Source: Rozella allomycis CSF55
Taxonomy: Eukaryota
DNA length: 20,000 nt
Reading direction: 5' to 3'
Assembly (NCBI GenBank): GCA_000442015.1
Contig: KE560926.1
Coordinates: 45,698 to 65,697 of the forward strand
Part shown: piece by piece, positions 1,519 to 20,000 of the stretch
Layout of the letters: the number at the start of each line of letters is the position of its first letter
Position numbering within the stretch: the stretch's first letter is position 1
Made by a program: the position numbers and the translations under genes
The notes under the pieces: model-generated
The model's database searches: none
Told to the model about the DNA's origin: nothing
What the model saw: the letters and a program-made list of their open reading frames with translations, nothing else

Positions 1519-2226
1519 ATGTCGTCGATAAAATGGTGGGATGAAAAAAAGTATTCAGCGATATTATTGAATGGATTTAAAGGCTTTGTTGACTGGCCAT
1601 TGTTCAGGAATGTTTGGGAAAATGCGCAATGTAAATTGTGCGCTGATGGAGCAGCGAATTCTCTTTTAGCCGAGACCAAGGAAAAATTTAGTTCAGTAAA
1701 TTTTGTACCTGACGCTATTGTTGGGGATTTAGATTCTTTAGACGAATTAACAAGAATAGAGTACCAAAAGGCCAATGTTGCAATTATACATGATTCGTGC
1801 CAAGATACTACAGATTTAACTAAATGCCTTAAATGTTTGGAAAAAATTCCATTATCGAATCCAGTTTTCGTATTTGGTGCATTCGGTGGTAGAGTGGACC
1901 AATCTCTTTCATCTATTCACAGCTCACTTTTATTTAATCATAAACGAATATATTTAATGAATAAAGAATGCTTATCAACAGTATTACAACCAGGAAACTC
2001 TAGCATTATCATTAACGAAAAACATGAAGGACCTATTTGCGGGGTTTTGCCTATTGTTCAAAGTAAAACGGTGGTTAGTACCACTGGCTTGAAATGGAAT
2101 TTGGATAATGCAAACTTATCATATGGCTCACTTATTAGCTCCTCAAACAAAGCGGTAGACACAGTCGTAACAATTACGACTAATCAACCAGTATTATGGA
2201 CAATTTGCTTTAAAAATGTTTCATAA
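1519..2226 (+). CDS. TPK1: Thiamine pyrophosphokinase (THI80/TPK1 family), intronless
   Basis: Contains the motifs CADGAAN, PDAIVGDLDS, QDTTDLTKC, GAFGGRVDQ, TTGLKWNL and LISSSN. First ATG is at 1519; the ORF track starts at a TTG at 1507. Confidence 0.93.
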   Translation: MSSIKWWDEKKYSAILLNGFKGFVDWPLFRNVWENAQCKLCADGAANSLLAETKEKFSSVNFVPDAIVGDLDSLDELTRIEYQKANVAIIHDSCQDTTDLTKCLKCLEKIPLSNPVFVFGAFGGRVDQSLSSIHSSLLFNHKRIYLMNKECLSTVLQPGNSSIIINEKHEGPICGVLPIVQSKTVVSTTGLKWNLDNANLSYGSLISSSNKAVDTVVTITTNQPVLWTICFKNVS

Positions 2227-2955: not shown

Positions 2956-5900
2956 ATGGGAGTTCCGGCGCTTTTCCGTTGGCTTAATAATAAGTATCCA
3001 AAAATTACGAGGAGTGTTATAGAAGAAGCTGCAACTGCGAATAATACTGTTTGTGGCAGGCTGGATGCTTCTGGGCCGAATCCCAATGGGGAAGAAAATG
3101 ATAATTTGTATTTGGACATGAATGGAATTATCCATCCTTGTTGTAAACCGGAAGGCAGAGAGGCACCGAAAACGGAGGAGGATATGTTTTTGGCGATATT
3201 TGAGTATATAGACAGAATATTTGCGATGGTCCGACCGAGGAAGCTGCTTTATATGGCTATAGATGGTGTTGCGCCTAGAGCAAAGATGAACCAACAGAGA
3301 AGCAGAAGATTTAGGTCTGTGAAAGAGTTGGCGATGAAAAAGGCGAAAGAGGAAGAGATGATTGAGAATGGATTTGAGGTACCCAACACAGAGGATGGAG
3401 GAGAAGAATTTGATAGAAACTGTATTACCCCTGGGACAATGTTTATGTATAATTTGTCAAAGGCATTAAGATATTATGTGCATGATAGATTGAGTAATGA
3501 TCCTGGCTGGAAGAATGTGAAAGTGATGTTTTCAGACGCGAGTGTACCTGGAGAGGGAGAGCATAAAATAATGACTTTTATTAGACAGCAAAGAATGAGT
3601 GAAGATCACGATATGAATACTAGTCATGTGATGTATGGACTTGACGCTGATTTGATAATGTTGGCGTTGGCTACACATGAACCACATTTTAAAATATTGA
3701 GAGAAGATGTATTTGCAGAAGATAGTACTAAAAGGTTTACGTGTACAAAATGCCAAAAGACTGGCCACATTGCAGCAGATTGTCCATTGGATAATCCAGA
3801 GAAGAGTGCCGTCCAGCCAAAGCCATTTATATTTTTAGATGTTGGGATTTTGAGAGAGTATTTGGAAGCAGAAATGAAAACAAATCCAAAATTAGATTTA
3901 GAGAGACTGATTGATGATTGGGTGTTTTTGTGTTTCTTTGTTGGAAATGATTTTCTTCCGCATCTTCCGTCATTAGAGATTAGAGAAGGAGCGATTGATA
4001 AACTTTTAGAAATATACAAGAGAAGATTTGATGAAATGGGAGATTATTTAACGAATAATGGAATTGTAGATTTATCACGTGTGGCAATCATTATGGAAGA
4101 ATTAGGGAGAATTGAAGATTCGGTTTTTAAGTCTAGAAGAGACAGAGAAGAAAGAAGAAGAGCGAATTTTAAAAGAAGAAGAATGGAAAATAATAATCCA
4201 ATTCCAAACCAAGAAGAAATCATCGCTGCAAAGAATATTGAAATGGCGTCTCTTTTAAGATCTAAATTAGCCAAGAAATCTATTAAAGAAAATGAAGAAA
4301 ACGAAGAAGAGAAAAGAAATTCAAGTGAAGCCAAAGATAAAGATAAAGAAGAGATTAGTGACAAAGTAGAAGTAGAAGAATTAAAAGAAGAGAAGGAAGA
4401 AGGGAATGGGGACAAGGAAGAAATAAAAGTTCTCAAAGGTGATTTGAATGCTCAGCTTACTGAATCAAAAGCTGAAGATTTTAAAGTGGAAACCAAAAAT
4501 AGTTTAGAATCTACTGAAACTAAAGATGAAAATACTGAAATCATGGAATCTAAAAGCGTCACTGAAGTTGGATCAACAATCACAGAAATTAAAAGGCCAA
4601 TCGATGAAGATGAAAGTGACCCTGAACCTTACGATGACGTCAGACTTTGGGAAAATGGTTGGAAAGAAAGATATTACTCTTCTAAATTTGGGATTGAATT
4701 GTCTGATACTTCATTTATAGATGATCTAGTATTCAATTACGTCCAAGGTCTTTGTTGGGTTTTACAATACTATTACAGGGGTTGTCCATCATGGAATTGG
4801 TATTTCCCATATCATTACGCTCCATTCGCTTCTGATTTCACAAAAATATCCAATCTGGATATTAAATTTGATCTAGGAACTCCATTTAAACCACTTGAAC
4901 AGTTGATGGGTGTGTTGCCAGCTGAAAGTAGACAATTTCTTCCTCCAGGGTTACAAAAACTAATGATTGACGATGATTCACCAATAATTGATTTTTATCC
5001 AAAAGATTTTTCGATTGATTTGAATGGAAAAATTCATGCTTGGCAAGGGGTTGCACTTTTACCTTTTATTGATGAACAAAGACTTTTAGAAGCAATTTCA
5101 AATGTTCAATTATCAAAAGAAGAAGAGAAGATGAATGAACAAGGCGAAGAGTCTATTTATCTTGGAAACTCGCATCCTGCATTTTCAATTGTTTTAGATC
5201 TTTATGAACCAACAATAAAAGAAGAAATAATAGAAGTGGATGCAAAACTATTTGATGGTTTATCTGGATTAATTGGCCCCGATTCTAATGCTGTTCTCCC
5301 TGGTCAGATCTTTCCTAGACCATTTAAACAAGTTTCAGATTTGGAAAACAACAATGCTATTTCGTAATTAATTTTAATTTCTTTAATAAAAGATGTTTGT
5401 ATTTCCATCCGCAGTTTCAAGACAAGCATGGATTCCAGTCAGAGTTACTTCCAGGTGTAGAACTTAAAGAGCGAGTTTTGACAAGAAATGATACTGATAT
5501 GGTTAAAAGTGGCAGAAAGCATCTGTCACATGCATCCATGCACAGAGAATCTCATCAACAGAGAGAAGGAAGATCCATGCATGGCAAGTTAGACAGAAGA
5601 TCCAACAGAAATGATAATTATGTTCCTAACCAAAGACAAGAATATAAACCTTACAATCGTCCAAGCAATCGCAGTAATGAGCGTTCTAGAGAACGTCCAA
5701 GTGACAGACACAATGAATATCGTTCGTATGATCAATACAATCGTTCTTATGATCAGTATCAAGCATCAAATTATCAATCTGGATATTCTAATCAAAATCA
5801 ATCTTACAGCTCTAATTCTAATCAAAATCTATCTTACAGTTCTAACTCTTATCACAATCAATCTTATAGCTCTCAATCTAGTCACAATCAATCATATTAC

Positions 5901-6908
5901 AATCAATATTATCCAAACAACAATTTTGATCAATATTCTCAATATCAAAGTCATCAACATGGTCATCATGTACAAAGTAATTCAAATCTCCATAGTCAAC
6001 ACGCTCATAATCAACATGGTCATCCTAATCAACANTTGTCACATGCATCCATGCACAGAGAATCTCATCAACACAGAGAAGGAAGATCCATGTATGGTAA
6101 ATTAGATAGAAGATCCAACAGAAATGATAATTATGTTCCTAACCAAAGACAAGAATATAAACCTTACAATCGTCCAAGCAATCGCAGTAATGAGCGTTCT
6201 AGAGAACGTCCAAGTGACAGACACAGTGAATATCGTTCGTATGATCAATACAATCGTTCTTATGATCAGTATCAAGCATCAAATTATCAATCTGGATATT
6301 CTAATCAAAATCAATCTTACAGCTCTAATTCTAATCAAAATCTATCTTACAGTTCTAACTCTTATCACAATCAATCTTATAGCTCTCAATCTAGTCACAA
6401 TCAATCTTATAGCTCTCAATCTAGTCACAATCAATCATATTACAATCAATATTATCCAAACAACAATTTTGATCAATATTCTCAATATCAAAGTCATCAA
6501 CATGGTCATCATGTACAAAGTAATTCAAATCTCCATAGTCAACACGCTCATAATCAACATGGTCATCCTAATCAACACGCTCCACTCGCTCACCAACAAG
6601 CATTTCCACCGTCAAACTATTCAAACAATCCAGCTCAACAATACGGCTACCAACAGCCACAATACAGCAACATGAATTACTATGGCCCACAATCAGGATA
6701 CAATTGGAACGCACAGTATCAAACACATAATCAACATCAAGCACCAGCCCATAATCAAAACTATTATGTTCAACAATTACAAAACTACCATGGGCAGCAA
6801 CAGCAGCAAAGACCATCAAGAGATCCAAGATCAAGTATCAGAAATCAAACCACGACAAACACTGCTAATCTCGCGTGGTCTAGGAACATTAATCGTCAGA
6901 AAAAGTAA
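2956..6908 (+). CDS. XRN2: 5'-3' exoribonuclease 2 (XRN2/Rat1/Dhp1); exons 2956-5363 and 5393-6908; the C-terminal low-complexity tail is probably inflated by an assembly duplication
   Basis: Motifs MGVPALFRWL, DNLYLDMNGIIHPC, AIDGVAPRAKMNQQRSRRF, PGEGEHKIM, GLDADLIML, GNDFLPHLP and WYFPYHYAPF, plus the CCHC knuckle CTKCQKTGHIAADC typical of XRN2 rather than XRN1. A 29-nt GT-AG intron at 5364-5392 joins the two ORFs in frame (NAIS|CLYFHP). Confidence 0.95.
5524..6577 (+). repeat. Near-identical direct duplication of about 0.5 kb (5524-6034 and 6037-6577) either side of the N at 6035; probably two alleles or overlapping contig ends joined in tandem
   Basis: The copies differ by a few substitutions (QQR/QHR, CATGGCAAGTTAGAC vs TATGGTAAATTAGAT, HNE/HSE) and one extra 30-nt repeat unit. 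The junction is a single N. Confidence 0.85.
5787..5906 (+). repeat. Coding 30-nt tandem repeat (SNQNQSYSSN-like decapeptide), 4 degenerate units; 5 units in the second copy at 6300-6449
   Basis: Units: tctaatcaaaatcaatcttacagctctaat / tctaatcaaaatctatcttacagttctaac / tcttatcacaatcaatcttatagctctcaa / tctagtcacaatcaatcatattacaatcaa. Confidence 0.8.
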
Positions 6909-6971
6909 TAAAAGTTCAAGTTAAATTCAAAAATCTTTTAATTTCATATCCATTATCCATTATAAGTTTAT

Positions 6972-9900
6972 TTATTTGTAGAATCTCTGTCTGAAAGCAT
7001 CCACAGTTTTAGCATTCCTCTCTTTCCTCACAAAACTCGGTTTCATTTCATAAAGCGATCTAGGAAACTGTTTAACAGCCCTTTCTTCAACCTCAATAAA
7101 CGGCGGCGGTCTCTTTAGAATAAACGAAATATCCAAATCCACATCAACATTGACCAAATCCAGCACATTCTGAATAGAAACATCATGCACGGTATAAGAC
7201 GCGTGGTTGACTACAGAGTTGACAATGTGATCGTCGTCGTATTGAAACAGAGAGCATTTGTGGTTGTATTCTTGCTGTTTCAATACTTCGAATGATTTCT
7301 TCAATTGGTAAAATAGAGCGGGTGATGATCGCAGGGGATCGGCAGCGAGTAGTTCAAATGTTTTCAGGATTGATTCTCTGGATTTGAAGAGATTCAGGGG
7401 ATCAATGTTTTCCTATACTTTGAATTTATGCATATTACTGAATCGAATGCAGAGTCTGGGTTGATTTCAAAAGAAAGTTTTTCTAGTTTATCAAGGATGG
7501 CTAGATCAGATTGATGTGAAGTAGACCATGAATTTATTTTGAAAGAAAGGGGATCCAAGTATATTTCTTTTGAGATTTCATTTGGATGCAAAATCTATAT
7601 TAAGATGGATAACAATTTACGTTTTCTATTTTCGAATTGTTAATTAATGATTTTATTTTCTCATTGAATACAATTCTTGTGCCTAAACCTTTAAAGGGAA
7701 GAGTGAATGATTTTTCATGGCAAATGATTGAAAGGGATCCATTCAATGATCCAGTTTTATTGGCGATTAAATTCAAGTCGATTTGTTTTGATTGTTTTGA
7801 TAAAATAGAAAAAGATTCTGGTAAAATTAACTTGTAGTCTTTTGATTCAACTGAAGTAATGACTACGTTGGCAGTAACATCGCCCTTGTTTATTAACTGA
7901 ATTTTAGCTTGTTGAATGAAATAACAAGGACAGAAACCTTTTTAATTAAAATTATGTTTGTATTACCAAAGTTTAGAATAGAAGAGGGTTTGATTAGTAG
8001 ATTGAATGTACCGCCGACACCAAAGGCGATTATTTCCTTGTAATTTGTTCCTTTGCATTCAACAATAAAATTTTCTTGAAATTTAATGAAATTATTTGGT
8101 GTGAATGAAAGATCTACATTTTCAGATTCATGGACATTCAAAGTTCCATGTAATTTTGACAATCTAAAGACATCTTTTTGATGATAATTGATAGACCATT
8201 TAAGTGGTACTTTACCTAATGATTATTCAATAGGTTTCTATTTACCTAATTATTATTAAAGCATATTATTACCTCTGTTAACTAGCGTGAATGATTTGCT
8301 GTATAAACAATCCACAGCACACACGCCAAAATCCAAACAAGAATGCCTAATAAACAAATCGGGCTGCACCGACTTTCCTCTCACCGTGCAATCAAACACA
8401 CCCACATTAGTCTTCAAGTGAATCTGGCTTCTCAGTTCATACGCGCCAGAAGGCAGCCAGCTAATTTTAACCATTGCTCTATCCAGCCCATTAATAGAAA
8501 TACAATTCGGCTCTACTCTGATGGGGAATGCAGCAATAATGTCAATTTGGAGTGGATACTTTCCAATATTTACCAAAGGAATTTCCCTCGTCGACAGTTC
8601 AAAGACGGGACAGGTGGACAGGTTTATTGATTCGATTAGAGATAAATCCAGAAGAGCTTCTTCGCATTGCCCCATCAAGTCGACGTGATAGAATTTGTCA
8701 TTGGCGTCTGTTTTAATAACTATTTTTTCTTCGAATGGGCCAGTTTTGAATGGAATGCAGCTTGTAGAGATTTCAACAGACTTTTTAGGTAGAACTAGTC
8801 CTTTGAATGTGTGCAGTTGAATGAATGAAGGTTTTGTTAATGGTTTAATAGAAAACTTTGTTTTAACAGAGCCAATGTTTTTAATTATGAAAGATAGTTT
8901 GGGTTTGGTGGATTTTTCAAAAAAGCCGAAATCTAATTTTGATTTTGACACTTCTAGACTGATTGTGCCAGAATGTAATTTGATTGGAATTAGATGCCTT
9001 GAATAAGGAGAAGAAACTAATAAATGAAGTTGCAAATCTAAATCTTTTGGTGGTTTAAAATAAATCATTAAATTTGATTCTTCAAATGGTAAAATAGTTA
9101 AATTGGATGGTTGAAGAATTATTAAATTATTAACAATTGAATCTAAAAATAGAAATCTAATAATAATACCCTTGTCTTTATCTTTATCTTTTTCATGAAT
9201 AGAAAATGTTAATGGATAATTAACTTGACCAACATTTTTAAAAGTAATTGAATCAGAATATGTATTCCCTTTGAATATAATTGTATGTTATTTACCAACA
9301 ATGCAGTCTATGAATTCAAGAGATGATTTTGAGATTAGCAAGACAGATTCTCTTCCAGTTCCAATTAATTCAATTTCATATTTTTCTAATAAAGTTCCAA
9401 TTATAACTTTTCCTGCTGGAGGATTCTCTTCCATTGGCATAAAAATTAATGGCAAATTAAATGTCGTTCCTTTAAATTGTTAACAATCAATGTTACCTGG
9501 TTGAAGTGATATTCTATCCATTGGCCATTCAATTCCTTTAACTGTGAGAATAGATTAATTACCTCTAGAATAATGTTTAGATTCAACCAAATCAAACAAT
9601 GTTAAATGAAGAATTGCATTTCCTTCATTTGTTATTGGCAAATAAGACAATGTTTGTTTTCCCAGCATACACAACCCAAAATCAAACCTATATATGTTAA
9701 AAGTAAAGATTTATACCTATTTCAAAGATTAACAATTGATTACCTAGATTATCTACTCTACCTTTTTCTACCTTTTAAATTTGGTTAAACTGATTCGCGC
9801 AAATCCACCCCCACCAAACATCCCCAACCTAATCCTCTGCGAACAATCAGGTTCAAAATACACAGGCGCACTCTGCACAGCTTCTTCCGTCGGCTTAAAA

Positions 9901-12900
9901 ATAAACGCAATAGTAACAGACTCATTAACATTTAAATTACCCTTATTAGGAACAACAACCAGCGATGAATTTTCATTAACAATTTTAAATGAAATAGATT
10001 TATGCCCAACATTTCTGAAATTTCTGTAAATAGTTTCAGATTGGCCCAACGGCTGTCGACCAAAATTTAAAGTTGAATTGTCGTCTACTAGAATTGTGAC
10101 TAGTTTGGGAGAGGCTGTGATTAATGTTTCAATGTTTTTGGTGTTTGGTATGTCTACTTTGCCAATGAGGGTGGATGAGAATGATTCTTCGTTGGGAAGT
10201 AATAGTTCTATTGTTATTTCAATCTCTGAATGTCCATTGATCATTGTTTCTGATGGGAATACTTTGATAAATGGTTTTGTTGTGCATAGTGATTGTGAAC
10301 CAACTGGATTTGTTGTTATTAAATGATAAAACATTTGCTTCTTTTTCAATTGAATTGATAATATATTCAACATGTTCTTTTTAGTCAATTGTTTAATATC
10401 TATCAATGATAATAGATGATTATTTACCCAACCCTTTCTCTAAACAACTCTCAAAGCTTACCTTGATCTTTTAGTACCATTCGTTTAATCAACATCCAAT
10501 AATCTTTAGCTTTAAATTCAACAGATTCATTTCTATCCTTTTTCTCTTTAATTAATTGATTTCTTAAAAAGGGAGATCTTGGATCTGTAACTGAAAATTG
10601 TTCTTCTAGATTAACAAAAGATCCATTAGTTTTATTCTGTCCAACAATTGAAAATTCAAATTTTATTCTCGTTGAAATTGAACCCGCATTCGTTATTTTA
10701 ATCTTCTTTTGATAAGCATACATGGCTGCTATATCACTAAAATTCAAATCTCCATTAAACGCTAAATTAATTGTTCCACTCTTGCCTATTCTAATCATTT
10801 GTGTTATTTCAAACCTTTTAATGGAATAGTCAAGTCATTTCTTTCAGCAAATATGTGAATAAATGAAGTAACACTCTCTTCTACTCTACTATTAAATCTA
10901 ACTAGAAAATCCATGGCACTTGAAGCATTCAACATGAATTGACCATCTTTAATCCAATTAAAGCTAGTAACCTTTAAAAGTACAATTAAAATTAAATTAT
11001 TTACCTATTAATCAAATATAGTTGAATTCTTTCACCTAGTAATCATTTACCAGTACTACTTTACCTATATTAATCATTCCAACTACTACTTTACCTAGTA
11101 ATCATCCAAATTATTCTCCTTTACCTTTTTTCTCTTCTCTTCTTTGATTCTCTCCACAGGATACGCACTGCCAACCACACAAGTACTAAAATCCTGCCCA
11201 TCCTGCCTAACATTAAACTGCATCGACACAAGCCCCACATTAATCAGCCTAAAATAACAATCAAAACTAGTAAACAGTGGAATAGTCCCAAAATCAATAC
11301 ACTCAATTCTAAATCCATCCAGACTCTCCACCTGCAGCTTGCCCAGTCCACCCATCCCAACAACTTTAAGTGAAATGCACTCCTTTTCATACAAGATCTT
11401 CAAATTGGCAATATATTTGCTATCAGTGCGTGGCTTGAACACAAATCTTAGAGGAATTACACTGTTGGCTTCAATGTAGCCTCGTCGTGGTTGGATGTCC
11501 ATTTCACGGATTCCTGTTGGCTGGATCAAATAGTCGATTGAAAAACACGATGAATTTACAAGCTTGAAATTGTTTATCATGCAAGTTAACACTGGCTGCA
11601 CCTTTAAATCCAATTCTACATTCTTGTCTGTTGAACTAATTGTTCTTTCGTTGGAATCAATCAGCGATAATCTTGGAACACTACTGGCTCCATTCAATTC
11701 CACATCTACAAATTCTTTTCGTGTGTAAATTCTTATAATCTTTTTAAATTCAATTGATTCTGCTGGATTGAATACTATTTTACATTTAATCTTGGAATAT
11801 GCATCTACACACCCTTGATTTGGTTCAATAAACAGTCCATCGTTTTCTAATTCAATCATCCATCTTGTTTTGCCATCCTTTTTTATTGTTTCATAGTCAT
11901 CATCTTCCAATAAACTCCAATCCAAGTTTCCTGGTTGTGGTCGAACCTAAAAGATTTAGGGGTTTAAAAGTACATTACCTTGAAATTAATGCCTAAATTA
12001 CTCAAGTTACCTATTATCAAATTATTCAGTATAGATACCTATATTCAAATTATTTCAGTATAGATACCTATTATCAAATTATTTCATCTTATTACCTTGA
12101 AATTGAATGGCAAATTGCCTTTGTTTTCAATAAGAATCTCTTTTTTAAAAGTAGATTCAACTCTACACATCCCAAAGTCTACAAACAATTCATCAACAGC
12201 CAACACAGCTTTCCCTATTAAACACCCACAAACACTCATTACCACCATGCCCTCTCACCAGCGTAACAAACGAGCTAAACCCATAATAAAATTCAATCTT
12301 ATAATCATAAAGCACCATTTCAGTCGGTTTAAACGCCAGCTTCACTTCTACCCCCTTATCAACCTTCAATTCTCCCTTATTCGGCTCAACAGTAAATGGA
12401 CTGGCTGAATCATACACGTATCGTCCCTCTTTCACCTTTAAAAACCTAACTTGGAATTTAATATCAATGTTGCCGTGGTTAAACAGCTTAAACTTTTTCA
12501 CCTCAAAAGACTCAATCTGACACACCCCAAATTCAATACAGTTCATAAACGTTTCTGGTTCAATCACAATCTTTGGAGCGCCAACCTTGCCCTTCAACTG
12601 GATAGTAAAATAGTCGCCTCTAGCATCATTAGACCTAACGTAGATTTTCACATCCAAGTCTTCAATAACAGTCGGAGTAAACAGAACATTCGCTTTGGCG
12701 ACACTGTTTGGGGGAATACACACCATCCCATTGTCGCTGTTGCTCTCCAATTTAATCTGTGGATGGTAACACGCAAAAGTTAGTGATGCTTCTGCTGGGC
12801 CCTTGTTCTCAATTTCAATGGATTTCACATTCAACACGCCAATCAATGCAACATCAAAGTCTAATTCTTTTGTTAACACTTGGATCTCTGGGTATCCGCC

Positions 12901-15900
12901 ACTTCCTTTAAATGATATCACTAGTGGTTTGGGTGTGTTTATTTCTTCTGATTGAACGTGGACTTTTAATTGTCCTTTGATGTTGCAAACACTTTTTGGT
13001 TGAAATTTAATCATCAAATAAACAATTCCATCACCTCATTTCAACAATTCAAACTAGTTACCTTATTATGTCAATATCTTAAACTTTTACCTAATATTTC
13101 AACCCCGTAAACTTTTTACCTTCAATAGTACCATTCTCTGGTTCAACAGACACTTGCGGGTCGCTACTCTCAATATAAAACTTTGCNACAGACACTTGCG
13201 GATCGCTACTCTCAATATAAAACTTTGCCGACATAACACCCTGATTAGTAACAGTAACATGATCGACATAAACAATCTGCCCCACACAAACACACTTAAA
13301 GTCAATAAAATCAGTTGAACAAGTTAAACTCGTAGACGCCCCCACTCCCTGCACAAGAATACTGCAGGTGGAATAATCTTCAGTAACCAAATGCAAAATA
13401 CTCTGCATTTGGTACTGCGGCATTGACGGCTTGAACACCACATCAACAGTCTGCGTGCACCCGGGATACAATCGACCGTGCAATGGGAATATTTCTAGAC
13501 AAGTTGTTAGCAATCTTTGCACTGAGAAATTGGTGTTTGTTATTTGGCCTTGCAGTGCTTTGATTAGGTTTGCGTTTTTGCCGGCTTTTCTGTAGACCAT
13601 TTCTTCTTGCTCAATGCACCAGTTTAATGGGACTAGACCATTGTTAGTGAATTTAATTTCTTTTAAATGTTTATCTTGGACTCCACAAATGCCAAAATCA
13701 ATCTTTTTCTCTGTTACTATTAATGGTGGTTGCAAACTGGCTTTGGTAGAGTAAACAAATTCTGTGATTGTATTGTTTATTGAAGACACTTTAAATGTTA
13801 CATCAGATTCATATTCTCCCTTATTATAAAGTTTCATCGTAATTTACTTTGGATAGTCCACCAAATGCAAAAACAAAATCTATAAATTGATTTGGCGCTA
13901 ATCTTATAGGAAACAATCTCTTCAATGTCTATCATTCTCTATTTAAAACAAATCTTACATTGTCGTTGAATTTAAGTTTAAAGGTGAAATCTAATTCATC
14001 CCAATCAACACAAATAGAATCTGGTTTTTCATCTTGCAATTCAAATTGATTCTTGAATGGATTCAATGCTTCATGATAAGATTTTACATCATCCAATGCT
14101 ATCAATTGATTTGTTCTGTAATCTACAACATTCCAAGCTAATAAATCTGGATTTGAACAATTTAAATTCATCAAACTCAATTCAAATGTACTTGTATTAA
14201 ACAATCTAAATGTTTTTGTTTTACACGAACCAACTCCAACCAATCCAAAATCTATCAAGCTTGGCAAATCTTTAATTGAAACAAATTCAACATTATTAAA
14301 TACATCAACTGCATTTTCATTCTCTTTCAATAGTTTGGCATCTTTCAACACTGAATCTTTTAACGTTGAGTCTTTTAAGATTGAAGAATCTTTCTGTTTC
14401 AACTCCTTTATATCTTTCACCTCCTTGACCTCTTTCAACTCATGTTCTTCAACTCCTTCAACTTCAATTATCCTCTTCACACTCTTAGGCCTCGCCAAAT
14501 TATTCTCCAACACAATCTTCCCACTATTAGCCATCAAAGACACAGCAAATGTTTTTCCTTTATGACAAATACAAATAAAATCAGAAAAATAATCAGTCAA
14601 AATTGGCTGAAACGAAATACTCAACACAATCTTACTCAACTTTGGTATCATCTTGATAATAGACTTTCCATTCAACATAAACGGTTGCTTTGGCGGTAAT
14701 AATGAAATAAAAGTATCCATTGGTGAATTATTATAGATTGTTATTGATTTGTTCACTGAATTGCCAACTTGTACATCGCCAAATGATATTGATTCATTAG
14801 TGAATTGGATCTCTCCTTCGCCAATACTAGACTCCAAATTTATTATCTTTATTGGAACATTTATCAATTTATTCTTTTCATGCTCCAAACAGTTAATCTC
14901 CATCTTTGAATGATAGTTTCCTTGTCTCAATGCTTGAAACGACACATCAACACAATACATTTCATATCCATACAACTTGCCATGCGTAGTATTCAATGAA
15001 AATGGCACTGTAACCTTTTCTTCATTTACTTTATCTAAATATATCTTTGCCTCCCATGACACTTCAATTGGAAATCTATTATAGATCATCAACCGCTCAC
15101 TCGTCTTTTCATTCGATTTCGGTGATCCTATTTGAATAACACTTTTAGTTCTTGTTTCTGTCCATATTTGGTTTTGATACACTCCATACAAACTACATCC
15201 AACACAACTCTTTCCTATCTCAACCCTTCACCATTAATTACCTTGATCATCACACACAGAAATCGATCCAACAATCGTATTGCTCTGATCTTCAATAAAC
15301 AAATCAAAATAGTTATAATCAATCCCCACAACCAACTCTACACTCTTGTTCGGATACAACGTTCCTTCAACTTCATTCACTACAAAGAATGGCCACGACA
15401 CTACAATTCTATACTTTTGCACTATAGAAGCCACACACGTCAATGTAACTGAAACATTCTTATTCACTTTCAAATACAACGCATTGCAACTCAATTTAAA
15501 TATTTCTGGAGGCGCTTGAATAGATTCAACAACTTCAACCAAATAATCACTCTCACTAAACATCAATCTTCTATCCTCTTCTCGCCCAAACAATGTTCTT
15601 ATTTGCGCTACAGTCTTCACCTTCAAAAACGCTTCACTCAAACTCATTCCAAATATCACATAAACTACTTTCGGCATCTTTATCGGCTCACTCATCTTTA
15701 CACTCAAATTACTTTTATAAATCCCTCCCTTGGCTGGATTAAACACCAAATCCACAAAATACACTGAACAACTCGGCATACACAACACCAACACTTGCTC
15801 ATCCTCTTCATTCTTCATCTCTGCCTTTACCATCTCATTCTTATTATAAACACTATTAGGCTTCATACTGAACACACCATTCTTCTTTTCTATTCTAACT

Positions 15901-18356
15901 TCCACTCTGCTACTCTCCAAATGCGGATTATAAATGGGAACAACGATATTCACACTAGCCTTCGGATTCACCGCAGGCATCACAATCGTCTGTCCAAACG
16001 GCACATTCACCATACAATTCACCTTGCAAACACACTCAACACTCTTAACTTCACTATTAGGGCTATAAATATTCAACACACTATTCTTCATCCCTCCAAA
16101 ATTCGGTTTAAAATACACACAAACTTTCCTCTTCTCACCAGGTCTCAACACAAGCGCCTCCATCTCCTCTTCAATCAATACCTCCCTTGACCCACTCTGT
16201 ATAATAACAGGCACACTCTCCTTTTCATCTTTATTAATCAGCGTCAAACTCTTTTCAACCTTCTCCATCGACACATCACACACCCCAAAATCTAAGCGGT
16301 CTTCAACTACCTCCAACGCACTAAAACAGCGTCCTTTCAATTTCACAAAATGCTTCTCCCCATACGCCGTCAATATCATCAGCTCATCCTCAATCTCATC
16401 CTCCTCACACTGCGGCTGGAACGTTATCCATATCTGCTGCTTGTTCCTCGGCCCAATAGTCATGCTACCCACACTGCTCGCAAAAAATGAACTCGTTTTG
16501 CTAGGCACAACACTAAATATACAGTTCAAATCCATCCCCGATAAATTAGACACAACCAGCAACGCCTTTCTCTCGTCTTTAACAATACACGTTCCGAAAT
16601 TCAGTCTCTGTGCTGATAAATGCAAAACTGGAATATTAAACGCTCTCAATGACAGTCTATTCCATCTTTGATAGTTTATTACCTCTCCAACAGGAATCCA
16701 TTCACATTCCTCACACGCAAATACCCATTAATGTCTCTGCCCATCGTAATCTCCAACGGTCTGGGCGTATACTGGATGCTCAAATTGGCATTCGAATTCG
16801 CCTTCAAAAACACATACCCAGGCTCTGCTACAAACAGATTCGGTGGATATGTTTGCAAACACAGCGATACATCCACATCCGATTTATTGTAAATGTTAAC
16901 CTCTTTAGACAAATTAAACTTGTTGAATATCAAACCGGTTGGCAAACTAAATGTTATAGTGGCCGGATCAAGAACAAAATCTCTTTGCTTGTCATTGCCA
17001 GATGCGATTTCATCAAGAAACGTTATAGAAGAAAATTTCCCCATCAAATCTATTTTAGCGATGTGTTTAATTTACTATTGAGAGAGAACGAGCGCAACGA
17101 CGCTGACACTTTACGTTGCCTCTGTGCGATGGTCTCAATATCATCCCTTAATTCTTGGCGCGCAAATACCGTATAAACTGGCGGCTCAACTATATTTTCC
17201 TCATTAAAAGCTCGTTACCATTTTTATCATCATCAAAATACGGAAGCGCTTGCACCATGCCATTAGCCTTTTTCTTATTAGCATTTGCAAACTTTTTAGA
17301 TCTCGTCCATCCAAATTCTGCATTATGCTTTATATCACCCGATTTCCCTGAATCAAACCTAGTAGCATCTTCAACCATCCATTTCCTTCTACGCACAGCA
17401 TACCCGCAATCACCCAAATACTTTTCATTGCCTTCCAAATTGGCCTGCAAAGATGGAAGCTGCGCAATGTGAGAATCAGAGGGCAGCGGATACCATTTGT
17501 TCCAAAACTTGGAAATTGCCTTTACCAGGTGCGGATGGTAGTCTTCATTCATGGATCCGATTTCATCAAACAAATTAAATGATAGCTCTTTGACAGCAAC
17601 AAAGAAAGTATTCATTCTTTGTCGATTGCGATTGGTCATATCCAATCGACACAAAAACGACAATACCTCTGCTTGCAACAGGAAATGCACATTCTCATTC
17701 AACAGATGCAAAAGCACCATGTCAATGTAATCTGCTATATGCTGCTTTATAGCCTTGTTTTCATCACGCATGAAATACGACAAGGCATTCAATATCATTA
17801 TACGATTCTTGGTATGCTCATCAGCAACAAAATACTCCTTGTGTGGCGGCTTCTGTGTATGCACAGCAACAGGAAACAGCTTCACAAACATATTCACAAC
17901 AACAATACAACCCAAACGCAATGAGACACTGTAATTCTCGCCAAATGCGGAATTCAAATAACCAAGCACAACATACGCCAGAAACCTGTTCTGCTCCACC
18001 TTTTATCATCAAAGATATACACCATACTTCATCACTGCTGGCAATATCAGTAACCCGTACGATCAACGCGCGGATACTTTCAGCATTCAGCAACGTGCTT
18101 TGGATAGCATTGGCGCCCATATTAAATAACATTTTCATAGTGGTCAATCTAATGAATGTCTCGGGAGACTTTAGCGCATTAAGGATATTGTTCCAATGTT
18201 CTTCATAACACTTCATATTCATATAATTCTATTAATGCAATACCAATTCTTTACATAGTCACAAGAAAGCATGGAATATGCTTGTATTATTTGCTTAAAA
18301 ATTGGTACAAGGTCAAAATGGCCCATCACGAGAGGTTTGCCCGGAGCAATCGTCAT
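6972..18356 (-). CDS. Giant (~3,430 aa, 25 exons) protein with an N-terminal helical HEAT/ARM-like region and about 20 ASH (ASPM-SPD-2-Hydin)/PapD-like Ig-fold modules; HYDIN/CFAP-like, probably ciliary; 5' end uncertain
   Basis: All minus-strand ORFs from 6972 to 18222 join in one continuous frame using GT-AG introns at 18229-18254, 18000-18027, 17190-17218, 17050-17075, 16657-16682, 15215-15241, 13929-13958, 13820-13847, 13035-13119, 12215-12242, 11947-12095, 10972-11124, 10786-10814, 10434-10461, 10400-10427, 9688-9771, 9536-9562, 9470-9496, 9269-9295, 9143-9169, 8216-8272, 7938-7966, 7595-7620 and 7413-7438. I checked exon phases by hand: 10,335 nt in total, including a 42-nt artefact. 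A module recurs: (L/I)DFGxCxV...(L/I)xNxG...F.V.P..G.L......V.F.P...L.G.G. Confidence 0.8.
8216..8272 (-). other. Compound intron: 2 abutting mini-intron units (8272-8246, 27 nt; 8245-8216, 30 nt)
   Basis: AGAG|gtaataatatgctttaataataattag|gtaaatagaaacctattgaataatcattag|GTAAAGTA restores LVNRG-KVPLKW. Confidence 0.8.
9688..9771 (-). other. Compound intron: 3 abutting mini-intron units (28, 27 and 29 nt)
   Basis: AAAAG|gtagaaaaaggtagagtagataatctag|gtaatcaattgttaatctttgaaatag|gtataaatctttacttttaacatatatag|GTTTGAT restores KFKR-FDFGLC. Confidence 0.85.
10428..10433 (-). other. 6-nt microexon (GGTTGG) between two 28-nt introns
   Basis: CAAG|gtaagc...gagaaag|GGTTGG|gtaaat...tgatag|ATATT gives KDQ-GL-DIKQ in frame. 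Confidence 0.6.
10972..11124 (-). other. Compound intron: 5 abutting mini-intron units (30, 30, 29, 31 and 33 nt)
   Basis: AG|GT junctions at 11125/11124, 11095/11094, 11065/11064, 11036/11035, 11005/11004 and 10972/10971. Removal restores EEKRKK-VTSFNW. Confidence 0.85.
11947..12095 (-). other. Compound intron: 5 abutting mini-intron units (28, 29, 28, 32 and 32 nt)
   Basis: AG|GT junctions at 12096/12095, 12068/12067, 12039/12038, 12011/12010, 11979/11978 and 11947/11946. Removal restores GNLPFNFK-VRPQPG. Confidence 0.85.
13035..13119 (-). other. Compound intron: 3 abutting mini-intron units (29, 29 and 27 nt)
   Basis: GAAG|gtaaaaagtttacggggttgaaatattag|gtaaaagtttaagatattgacataataag|gtaactagtttgaattgttgaaatgag|GTGATG restores NGTIEG-DGIVYLMIKF. 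Confidence 0.85.
13146..13228. repeat. 41-bp direct duplication either side of the N at 13187 (assembly overlap; one mismatch)
   Basis: acagacacttgcgg(g/a)tcgctactctcaatataaaactttgc at 13146-13186 and 13188-13228. Confidence 0.85.
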
Positions 18357-18467
18357 TTTGTAAATTTCGTTATTGATGTTCAATCATTGAAAAAAACCAT
18401 GGGGCAAAAGCTGAAGCCTACATTTTTTATACAATATGACATTAACTACTACACTTGTAACCGGCTN

Positions 18468-19096
18468 CTTGACATTTTGGAGAAAAGGAATGTTAATTAA
18501 TAGTTGTTCATCACAATCCGATTTTAAAAATCCTTCTTTCTTAAAAATGTTATGAACTGTGTGCTTTGCATCCTGATTAAGACAATGTACTTGTTTGACA
18601 TCAATAAACTCTTTAATATCATACTCATCATTTAAAATTTAAATTTTTACAAATCCTGGAATCCCAATATCTTCGGCTACAACTTTAGGTGAATGCTTTG
18701 TCAGAAGTTCCTCGAGTTTAGCAGGGTTTGCCCCTGAAAACGAGTCTACTTTGTTTTTATTTTTTAGAAATATAAAGTAAGGAATTGAAGTAGCTTGATA
18801 TTTCGCAGCTAGAGACTACTTATTAAGTCGATTATGTTCTACTTGGACTTGGTCTACGTTGACTGACAAGAATACCACATTAGTATAAGTACTGCTAAGG
18901 CGATCAAAAATTGGTGAAATCATTTTGCAAGGACCACACCTATAATTTATGAAGGGAAATCAGGACTTACCATTCCGCGTTAAAGTCTACGACAACCTAG
19001 ATTAGTAAAAGCGAGTTTCATTACAAGTTTTCCGGGATTTGACGACAAGATACGGTCAAACTCTTGCTCGGTACTAATCGTTATGACTTTTGACAT
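18468..19096 (-). CDS. TXNL1: Thioredoxin-like protein 1 (thioredoxin + PITH domain), 3'-truncated at the gap N18467; absent from the ORF track
   Basis: Introns at 18997-19024, 18940-18970, 18816-18842 and 18624-18650 give [13 protein letters not shown]...[21 protein letters not shown]...FLSVNVDQ...SIPYFIF...GANPAKLEE. The sequence continues [18 protein letters not shown]...[21 protein letters not shown], the start of a PITH domain. Confidence 0.92.
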
Positions 19097-19794
19097 TAGG
19101 GTGGCTGGAGCAATGTATTACGAGGTATGCAGGAGATAAATTCATTGGATAAGTTAAAAACAATTTAAAAGATTGACAAGACACAAGCGCTCTCCAAGTC
19201 CAGTTCGTCATTAATGGACACTGATAAGTGATAAACTTGATTCAACTTTCTTTCAATTTATTTAATGAGATCAGTTAAAAAATGTTTCACCAGAATCAGA
19301 GGACGGAAAAAAACGATTTACGTCCCTGTGGGATTTGGGTTTGCATCATTGAATTATTGGGTTACAGAAGACATTGAGCAGCTGGTTATGAAGGAATGTA
19401 ACATTTGACAATCGTGAAAGGACTTTAAATGGCAGATCCAGTTACATAATTATGATGATTTTCCTGCTCTAAATTTTGAAAGGCGCCTCTGTTGTGAAAA
19501 ATATTGAATTTCTACAGAACAAAGGCTTGGTGGAACCGTGAATGTTCAAGAATCTTTGACCCAGTCAACAAAATGCTATTTTCACTTTTAAGAATTTGTG
19601 AAAAAGTGGACAGTAGGTTTTATAAATGACAGAAAATACTTCAACGCTACCAGACGCCATTATTATCAGAACATATCTAAAAGCCTATGCTACATCAGAC
19701 ACTGAATCAGAGGGAGAGCTGCAAACTGAAGTCGACACAGAGGAAGAAGACAGGCTACAAGGCTCCAGCAAAACCAGCAGTAAATGGACAGGCA

Positions 19795-19855
19795 ATTGGC
19801 CCCACAATCTGCCTGTATAGACCTNATTGGCCCCACAATCTGCCTGTATAGACCT
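19795..19855. repeat. 30-bp exact direct duplication either side of the N at 19825 (assembly overlap)
   Basis: attggccccacaatctgcctgtatagacct at 19795-19824 and 19826-19855. Confidence 0.85.
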
Positions 19856-20000
19856 GACAAACAACTGAAGGCACAAATGTTGTTTTGATAAGAAAATCGA
19901 CGGCATAAAATCAATCCGTATATATAGAAATTCGGTCTTATCGCTGTATAGGTGTCCAAAAGCACTTCCAAGTCATCCAAAGTGCCAAGATTTTGAATAT

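Follow-up and report, generated by a model that had tools for sequence, protein, structure and literature searches.

Tandem arrays of mini-intron units at AG|GT positions in a Rozella allomycis gene differ in length among DNA samples

How new spliceosomal introns originate is a long-standing question, and few such events have been caught young. The question is raised by a 20-kb stretch of the genome of Rozella allomycis CSF55 (20,000 nt of contig KE560926.1, positions 45,698 to 65,697; hereafter the window, numbered from its first letter). In it, one large gene on the minus strand carries, at five places, a head-to-tail array of short intron-like units. An initial annotation of the sequence had placed all five arrays at exonic AG|GT sites (the bar marks the intron position) and had proposed that they grew by repeated duplication of an intron. 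What are these arrays made of, why do they stand where they do, and how do they grow?

We modeled genes across the window from reading frames and splice signals, using a signal-scored model that replaced one with a flat intron penalty, which had mixed units with short exons. The host gene and its arrays are as follows, in window numbering.

Host gene: 18228-6975, minus strand; 3,417 codons with 0 stops after removal of the five arrays and 16 other introns (21 intron positions).
Array A: 13119-13035, minus strand; 3 units of 29, 29 and 27 nt; phase 1; flanks GAAG|GTGA.
Array B: 12095-11947, minus strand; 5 units of 28, 29, 28, 32 and 32 nt; phase 0; flanks CAAG|GTTC.
Array C: 11124-10972, minus strand; 5 units of 30, 30, 29, 31 and 33 nt; phase 0; flanks AAAG|GTTA.
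Array D: 9771-9688, minus strand; 3 dissimilar units of 28, 27 and 29 nt; phase 2; flanks AAAG|GTTT.
Array E: 8272-8216, minus strand; 2 units of 27 and 30 nt; phase 1; flanks AGAG|GTAA.

The arrays comprise 18 units, two to five in each, all of which begin with GT, end with AG and measure 27-33 nt. The five exon contexts first reported (AG|GT in 5 of 5) proved exact to the letter on the minus strand. All 13 internal unit junctions also read AG|GT, with A or G as the next letter, and therefore no exon lies between units. When both strands of the 20 kb were scanned for chains of two or more good units, the five array loci were the only ones recovered, apart from other, overlapping parses of array C and chains antisense to array E. 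Random intron-like sequence of equal length could seldom be divided in this way: the numbers parsable into GT..AG units of 26-33 nt, per 20,000 trials, were 2 for array A, 0 for B, 0 for C, 2 for D and 289 for E. A sixth unit of 25 nt was considered for array C and dropped, because its removal runs into a stop.

We compared the 18 units with the 23 firm single introns that could be placed in the window. The units span 27-33 nt and the single introns 26-31 nt; a GTAA 5' end is found in 13/18 units vs 20/23 single introns, a TAG or AAG 3' end in 17/18 vs 22/23, and the A+T content is 0.76 vs 0.74. The motif YTRAY, used as a branch-point consensus, occurs at 5-16 nt from the 3' end in 10/18 units and 10/23 single introns, a fit to only about half of each set. 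We also tried all subsets of retained units. The frame stays open only with full removal, except where B units 3 and 4 together or C unit 5 are kept, and both of these exceptions still have AG|GT contexts. The arrays interrupt the immunoglobulin (Ig)-domain motif at differing points and in different phases (1, 0, 0, 2, 1), and are thus not paralogous copies of a single site. From frames and splice signals, the arrays are probably runs of complete, independently spliceable U2-type mini-introns with zero-length exons between them.

The product of the host gene is predicted to be a multi-domain Ig-like (ASH) protein of the cilium or centrosome, of the HYDIN/CFAP65/CFAP74/Cep192 type, with Ig-like (ASH) domain matches (PF22544, PF24507, PF22073, PF15780 and others) on 6 of the 8 exons scanned. 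Such a function makes sense because the organism has swimming zoospores. A full-library protein search returned a public protein model of 2,578 residues (P0123) that is near-identical to the window's exons. It omits arrays A-D, each as one whole block with exactly the borders given above, and ends before array E: at array A it joins 13118 to 13035, at array B it reads ...NFK|VRPQPG, and at arrays C and D it lacks all 153 nt and 84 nt, respectively. Being itself a predicted model, P0123 provides agreement rather than proof. It also lacks 36 nt (~14228-14193) and 27 nt (~11276-11250), both of which are in-frame, stop-free GT..AG stretches encoding conserved-looking residues (e.g., FRLFNT); these are probably over-predicted introns or small allelic deletions.

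Does the AG|GT context set the arrays apart from other introns of the window? Among the 23 single introns, AG precedes 7 and GT follows 4, and no intron has both, against an expectation of 1.2 for independent sides. The initial annotation had counted 30 single introns, none at AG|GT and several with one side only; the zero and the one-sided cases held, and the firm number is 23. With AG|GT at 5/5 arrays and 0/23 single introns, Fisher's exact test gives p = 1.0e-5, and the probability of five AG|GT contexts out of five under the single introns' own flank frequencies (joint 0.053) is 4e-7. The zero among the single introns is by itself unsurprising (P = 0.29); the signal is that every AG|GT intron position holds an array. 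The spliced coding sequence of the host gene contains 28 AGGT sites, of which 5 are intron positions, all of them arrays, and 23 have no intron. Three doubtful introns likewise lack AG|GT flanks. Two are the in-frame stretches removed by P0123 alone, and the third is the following.

62-nt intron: 10461-10400, minus strand; twice the usual size, flanks AG|AT; removed as one intron in the open frame of the host gene and in P0123 (...LKDQ|DIKQL).

The second half of this intron is a perfect-looking 28-nt mini-intron, and the first half could be a 28-nt intron plus a 6-nt exon. Besides one intron, it may represent a doublet that has decayed or a pair of 28-nt introns flanking a 6-nt exon; a decayed doublet would be a compound intron away from AG|GT. 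A 38-nt "intron" at 10477-10440 was rejected as an artefact of the path search, as the 62-nt solution fits better. A 25-nt "intron" at 2760-2736 was rejected on the same grounds; the AMMECR1 motif runs uninterrupted there.

To compare array lengths we aligned contigs of four public DNA runs (X1, X2, X5 and X6) to positions 6900-20000 of the window. At each of the five arrays, one or more runs depart from the length seen in the window, as listed below.

Array A: +29 nt, one extra 29-nt unit giving 4 units (rebuilt); X5 and X6.
Array B: -29/-30 nt; X1, X5 and X6.
Array C: -61 nt giving 3 units (rebuilt); X1, X2 and X6. Also ~60 nt shorter in X5.
Array D: +55 nt, ~two more units (73 letters in place of 18 nt); X1 and X6.
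Array E: +60 nt giving 4 units (rebuilt); X5.

The rebuilt alleles of arrays A, C and E, which rest on the contig-junction tables of one tool, consist of whole units only, with AG|GT junctions and unchanged exon flanks, and loose contig ends of X2 at array D hold further AG|GT junctions. The initial annotation had suggested a comparison of unit number between strains, haplotypes and related species; among the runs compared here, all five arrays vary in length and the three rebuilt alleles differ by whole units. This copy-number variation at the arrays is new here. In four of the five cases the change in length is not divisible by 3, and inside a frame of 3,417 codons this means that the array DNA is not coding in both alleles; the differences are tolerable only if the arrays are spliced out. 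The single introns, by contrast, look stable in the contigs listed: at least 15 of the 23 are spanned by gap-free ones, and two more show only a 1-nt deletion each, at 9474 and 17195. One X6 contig has a surplus of 28 letters somewhere between 9712 and 11047. X1 and X2 carry many single-base variants at about half the local depth across the aligned region, and their contigs break at these variants and at the arrays, as two diverged haplotypes within a single culture would lead one to expect. Metagenome contigs were scanned for relatives twice, with the window's exonuclease gene and with the exon that separates array B from array C, and none was found.

The sequences of the units indicate how the arrays changed. 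The seven most similar of all 153 unit pairs are intra-array pairs (within B1-3, C1-3 and A1-2), which has a chance probability of 2.6e-6, and Tandem Repeats Finder also picks up arrays B, C and A. Units 1-3 of array B are close copies of one another and units 1-3 of array C are related. Between arrays, mean unit similarity is 0.13, vs 0.10 to unrelated single introns. Two units record where a duplication ended. In array B, a copy of the upstream exon's end and of the start of unit 1 occupies the last ~21 nt of unit 4 and runs on into the next unit for five letters (score 16.5 vs a null maximum of 12, p = 0.003). In array E, the E1|E2 junction resembles the E2|exon junction, including the downstream exon's GTAAA (p = 0.01), such that unit 2 opens with the first five letters of that exon. 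The exon-derived ends of B4 and E2 imply that these duplications were out of register with the intron, that the exon's AG (array B) or GT (array E) became a splice site, and that the break did not lie at AGGT. On a smaller scale, a perfect 10-nt tandem duplication at 9757-9776 (minus strand) repeats AAAAG|GTAGA across the exon/D1 junction (Tandem Repeats Finder, 2.0 copies, 100% match) and shows small-scale slippage at such a junction. It yields a second GTAGA donor 10 nt downstream, the use of which would shift the frame.

These observations support the growth of arrays by local tandem duplication of whole intron units, repeatedly and harmlessly. The same idea in the initial annotation is borne out by the seven top-ranking pairs and by the alleles found at all loci, three of them rebuilt with whole-unit differences. 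The cause that it had named, AGGT microhomology, fared less well, given that the B4 and E2 end points lie off AGGT.

What, then, does the AG|GT context do? Because the two visible duplication end points lie away from AGGT, we consider a permissive role for this context the probable one, in preference to precise microhomology repair. The arrays would act like minisatellites, in which whole units are won or lost through local tandem duplication, unequal exchange or slippage. In an AG|GT context, exon ends would be interchangeable with unit ends: an upstream shift of the duplication would give a new unit whose closing AG is that of the exon (as in B unit 4), and a downstream shift one whose opening GT is that of the exon (as in E unit 2). 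Units could be removed in any order, and those left would still be preceded by AG and followed by GT. In this context, and hardly in any other, duplication would leave the mRNA unchanged, and such duplications could therefore drift and expand. In its general form, to which we assign a probability of roughly 40%, this reading holds that any Rozella intron in an AG|GT context is a self-expanding "intron minisatellite." New functional introns would be born in place by shifted tandem duplication and removed singly across zero-length exons, since the spliceosome would take only ~29-nt introns, and their number would differ even between haplotypes.

Several points weigh against this reading. All five arrays belong to one gene of one 20-kb window. 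The removal of every unit as an intron of its own is read from frames and splice signals. The D units, B5, C4 and C5 resemble no neighbor, and all-pair similarity within arrays is only weakly above that between arrays (0.22 vs 0.13, p = 0.058); the dissimilar units (D1-3, B5, C4 and C5) suggest that the arrays mix old and young units. Exon-derived ends are significant in just 2 of 10 flank tests (B upstream and E downstream). Because several variants in X1 and X2 have only about half the depth, the "alleles" may belong to two haplotypes of a single strain and not to separate strains. Finally, any one duplication event needs only an AG or a GT, so the presence of both at 5/5 sites is not explained by a permissive context alone. 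This two-sided pattern is predicted by microhomology, by a splicing-context filter or by birth through duplication of an exonic AGGT, which are live and mutually compatible rivals.

In the first of these, AGGT at both intron ends forms a 4-nt direct repeat, through which slippage or microhomology-mediated repair duplicates or deletes the intron precisely, and the context acts at the mutation step. This model requires both AG and GT, as found at 5/5 arrays, where a one-sided permissive model does not, and it accommodates both the whole-unit differences of the three rebuilt alleles and the perfect 10-nt slippage product at array D. Nevertheless, the end points that can be seen lie ~21 nt (B unit 4) and at least 5 nt (E unit 2) off the junction, four bases are very short for a slip of ~29 nt, and from two units on the homology between units explains the changes without AGGT. 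We regard microhomology as rather unlikely to be the explanation. Alternatively, selection at the RNA level might act as the filter: duplications would occur at any intron, and arrays would survive only in an AG|GT context, where the neighbors of the splice sites stay the same and serial splicing is efficient. The internal junctions are all AG|GT by construction, a context thus familiar to the units, and the diverged units D1-3, C4, C5 and B5 keep intact junctions that are rare in random sequence. Human AGGT sites used as both 5' and 3' splice sites also aid each other's recognition (PMC10809524). However, the ordinary introns of the window do well without AG before them (16/23) or GT after them (19/23), and the spliceosome here therefore does not need an AG|GT context. 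We consider such a filter improbable, more so than microhomology.

The two remaining rivals concern what the units are. The arrays could leave as single long introns of 57-153 nt, with the internal AG|GT junctions being inherited marks of duplication and the origin a Rogers-type duplication of exonic AGGT. P0123 treats each of arrays A-D, and the 62-nt intron, as one intron, and the tail of B unit 4 is exon-derived. Both the Rogers model, in which an AGGT-containing segment is tandemly duplicated, and the insertion of a transposon into AGGT have been published as routes of intron gain (PMC3443670); the initial annotation was correct in calling the former a classical model, and under it AG|GT flanks are predicted by construction. 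On the other hand, all 23 firm single introns measure 26-31 nt, suggesting a narrow size window, the old, dissimilar units retain GT..AG ends and a normal unit size, and in the flank tests no unit has the expected makeup of a start taken from the downstream exon and an end taken from the upstream one. Removal as single long introns is very unlikely in our estimation. Least probable of all, we think, is that a mobile intron, introner-like or reverse-spliced, targets and duplicates AG|GT and gave rise to the units by insertion of its copies, or that the association reflects chance or an annotation artefact. Insertion into AGGT has the published transposon model on its side. It is unlikely here because there is no dispersed family within the window (between-array similarity is close to that with single introns, and the best pairs are neighbors), no single intron at AG|GT, and 23 AGGT sites of the coding sequence are empty. 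Insertion with an AG/GT target duplication, which the initial annotation had offered as its alternative, fails in the same way, as units from separate arrays resemble one another no more than unrelated introns do, and 23/28 AGGT sites are intron-free. Chance would be favored by the small sample of five arrays in one gene; the Fisher test excludes it (p = 1e-5). The flanks, moreover, lie in conserved domain motifs (e.g., NRG|KVPLKW and PFNFK|V).

How does an array of this kind, on the minisatellite reading, compare with known systems? As in the Rogers model, there is AG|GT on both sides, the duplicated DNA is spliced out and leaves the coding sequence unchanged, and exon-derived sequence is present (B4). 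In contrast to that model, where an exon segment is duplicated once and gives one intron, here it is mostly an existing mini-intron that has been copied repeatedly, into 2-5 units whose number varies among alleles. A potato RdRp gene is reportedly a case of intron gain by tandem genomic duplication. In Drosophila, recursive splicing at zero-nucleotide exons, or ratchet points, is said to subdivide very long introns. The arrays share with ratchet points the abutting 3' and 5' splice sites, an AG|GT that would regenerate the 5' site, the lack of an exon and an expected stepwise removal; they differ in that a whole array is only 57-153 nt long and each step would remove an intron of normal size. 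Introners and other transposon-derived introns are reported to create target-site duplications. With these the arrays have in common the AGGT proto-splice site as the place of new intron DNA, whereas in this window the copies are close neighbors and do not form a dispersed family.

The closest published idea that we found comes from work on dual-specific splice sites (PMC10809524). There, tandem repeats delimited by AGGT, such as those of human UBC, undergo splicing from one repeat border to another, and a proposed "DSS expansion" model derives new introns from the expansion of such repeats. The likenesses are an AGGT-delimited tandem array, an intron length that is a multiple of the unit, expansions made harmless by splicing and a polymorphic copy number. 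The difference is that UBC repeats are coding ubiquitin monomers with optional splicing, whereas the Rozella units are non-coding introns of ~29 nt that must all go, in a fungus whose introns are tiny. The complex intervening sequences of fungi, stwintrons among them, likewise comprise more than one U2 intron, removed in consecutive reactions, and duplication of a donor has been proposed as their origin (PMC7138796). Stwintrons are nested, with one intron breaking up a splice signal of the other, unlike the array units, which abut and each have their own GT and AG. In a single-cell genome study of fungi that included Rozella allomycis, median intron lengths ranged from 29 to 197 bp (PMC8042348). 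A literature search on tandem, abutting or arrayed spliceosomal introns returned no account of arrays of complete mini-introns; most subscription journals were outside its reach, and an earlier report is possible.

With a duplication product that is still polymorphic, an exon context that is all-or-none in the window (5/5 vs 0/23) and two events whose end points are visible, the arrays look like intron duplication caught in progress. If the rule were to hold genome-wide, Rozella would offer a system in which the rates at which introns are gained and lost could be measured by counting in populations, the proto-splice-site idea could be tested as permissiveness rather than targeting, and obligatory serial splicing over zero-length exons would be open to study within a very narrow range of intron sizes. 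If the minisatellite reading is true, intron gain may be observable in real time, and the proto-splice site would be a permissive condition and not an insertion target. Where a gene caller takes an array for one long intron the phenomenon goes unseen, and assemblies built from short reads break at the arrays.

The window uses the standard genetic code and has long open frames on both strands. Its 5'-3' exoribonuclease has best matches of ~60% identity in chytrids and other early-diverging fungi, and a Protein Atlas search with it gave the family but no informative taxon. The C-terminal tail of this XRN2/Rat1-like exonuclease (5780-6460, plus strand) is very rich in Q, N, S and Y and contains 30-nt and 15-nt repeats, which on the opposite strand mimic high-scoring mini-introns and hence call for caution in calling introns from signals alone. 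A thiamine pyrophosphokinase gene (1519-2223, plus strand) is intron-free; its product occurs in the public protein collection, with a partner in its 90%-identity cluster that is named as a Rozella allomycis CSF55 protein, and the exoribonuclease matches fit this species.

Single Ns at 6035, 13187 and 19825 each mark the point where two exact or near-exact tandem copies meet. The copies measure ~513 nt at 6035 (tail of the exonuclease), 42 nt at 13187 (an exon of the large gene) and 31 nt at 19825 (near the end of the window). The 42-nt copy is skipped by X5 and the 31-nt copy by X1 and X2; these duplicates look like unmerged contig overlaps, not biology. At 18467-18468, X1 and X6 contigs that match from 18468 upward carry unrelated letters below, and a thioredoxin-like (TXNL1-type) gene loses the frame of its PITH domain at the same place, where the N is probably a gap or misjoin between this gene and the start of the large ciliary gene.

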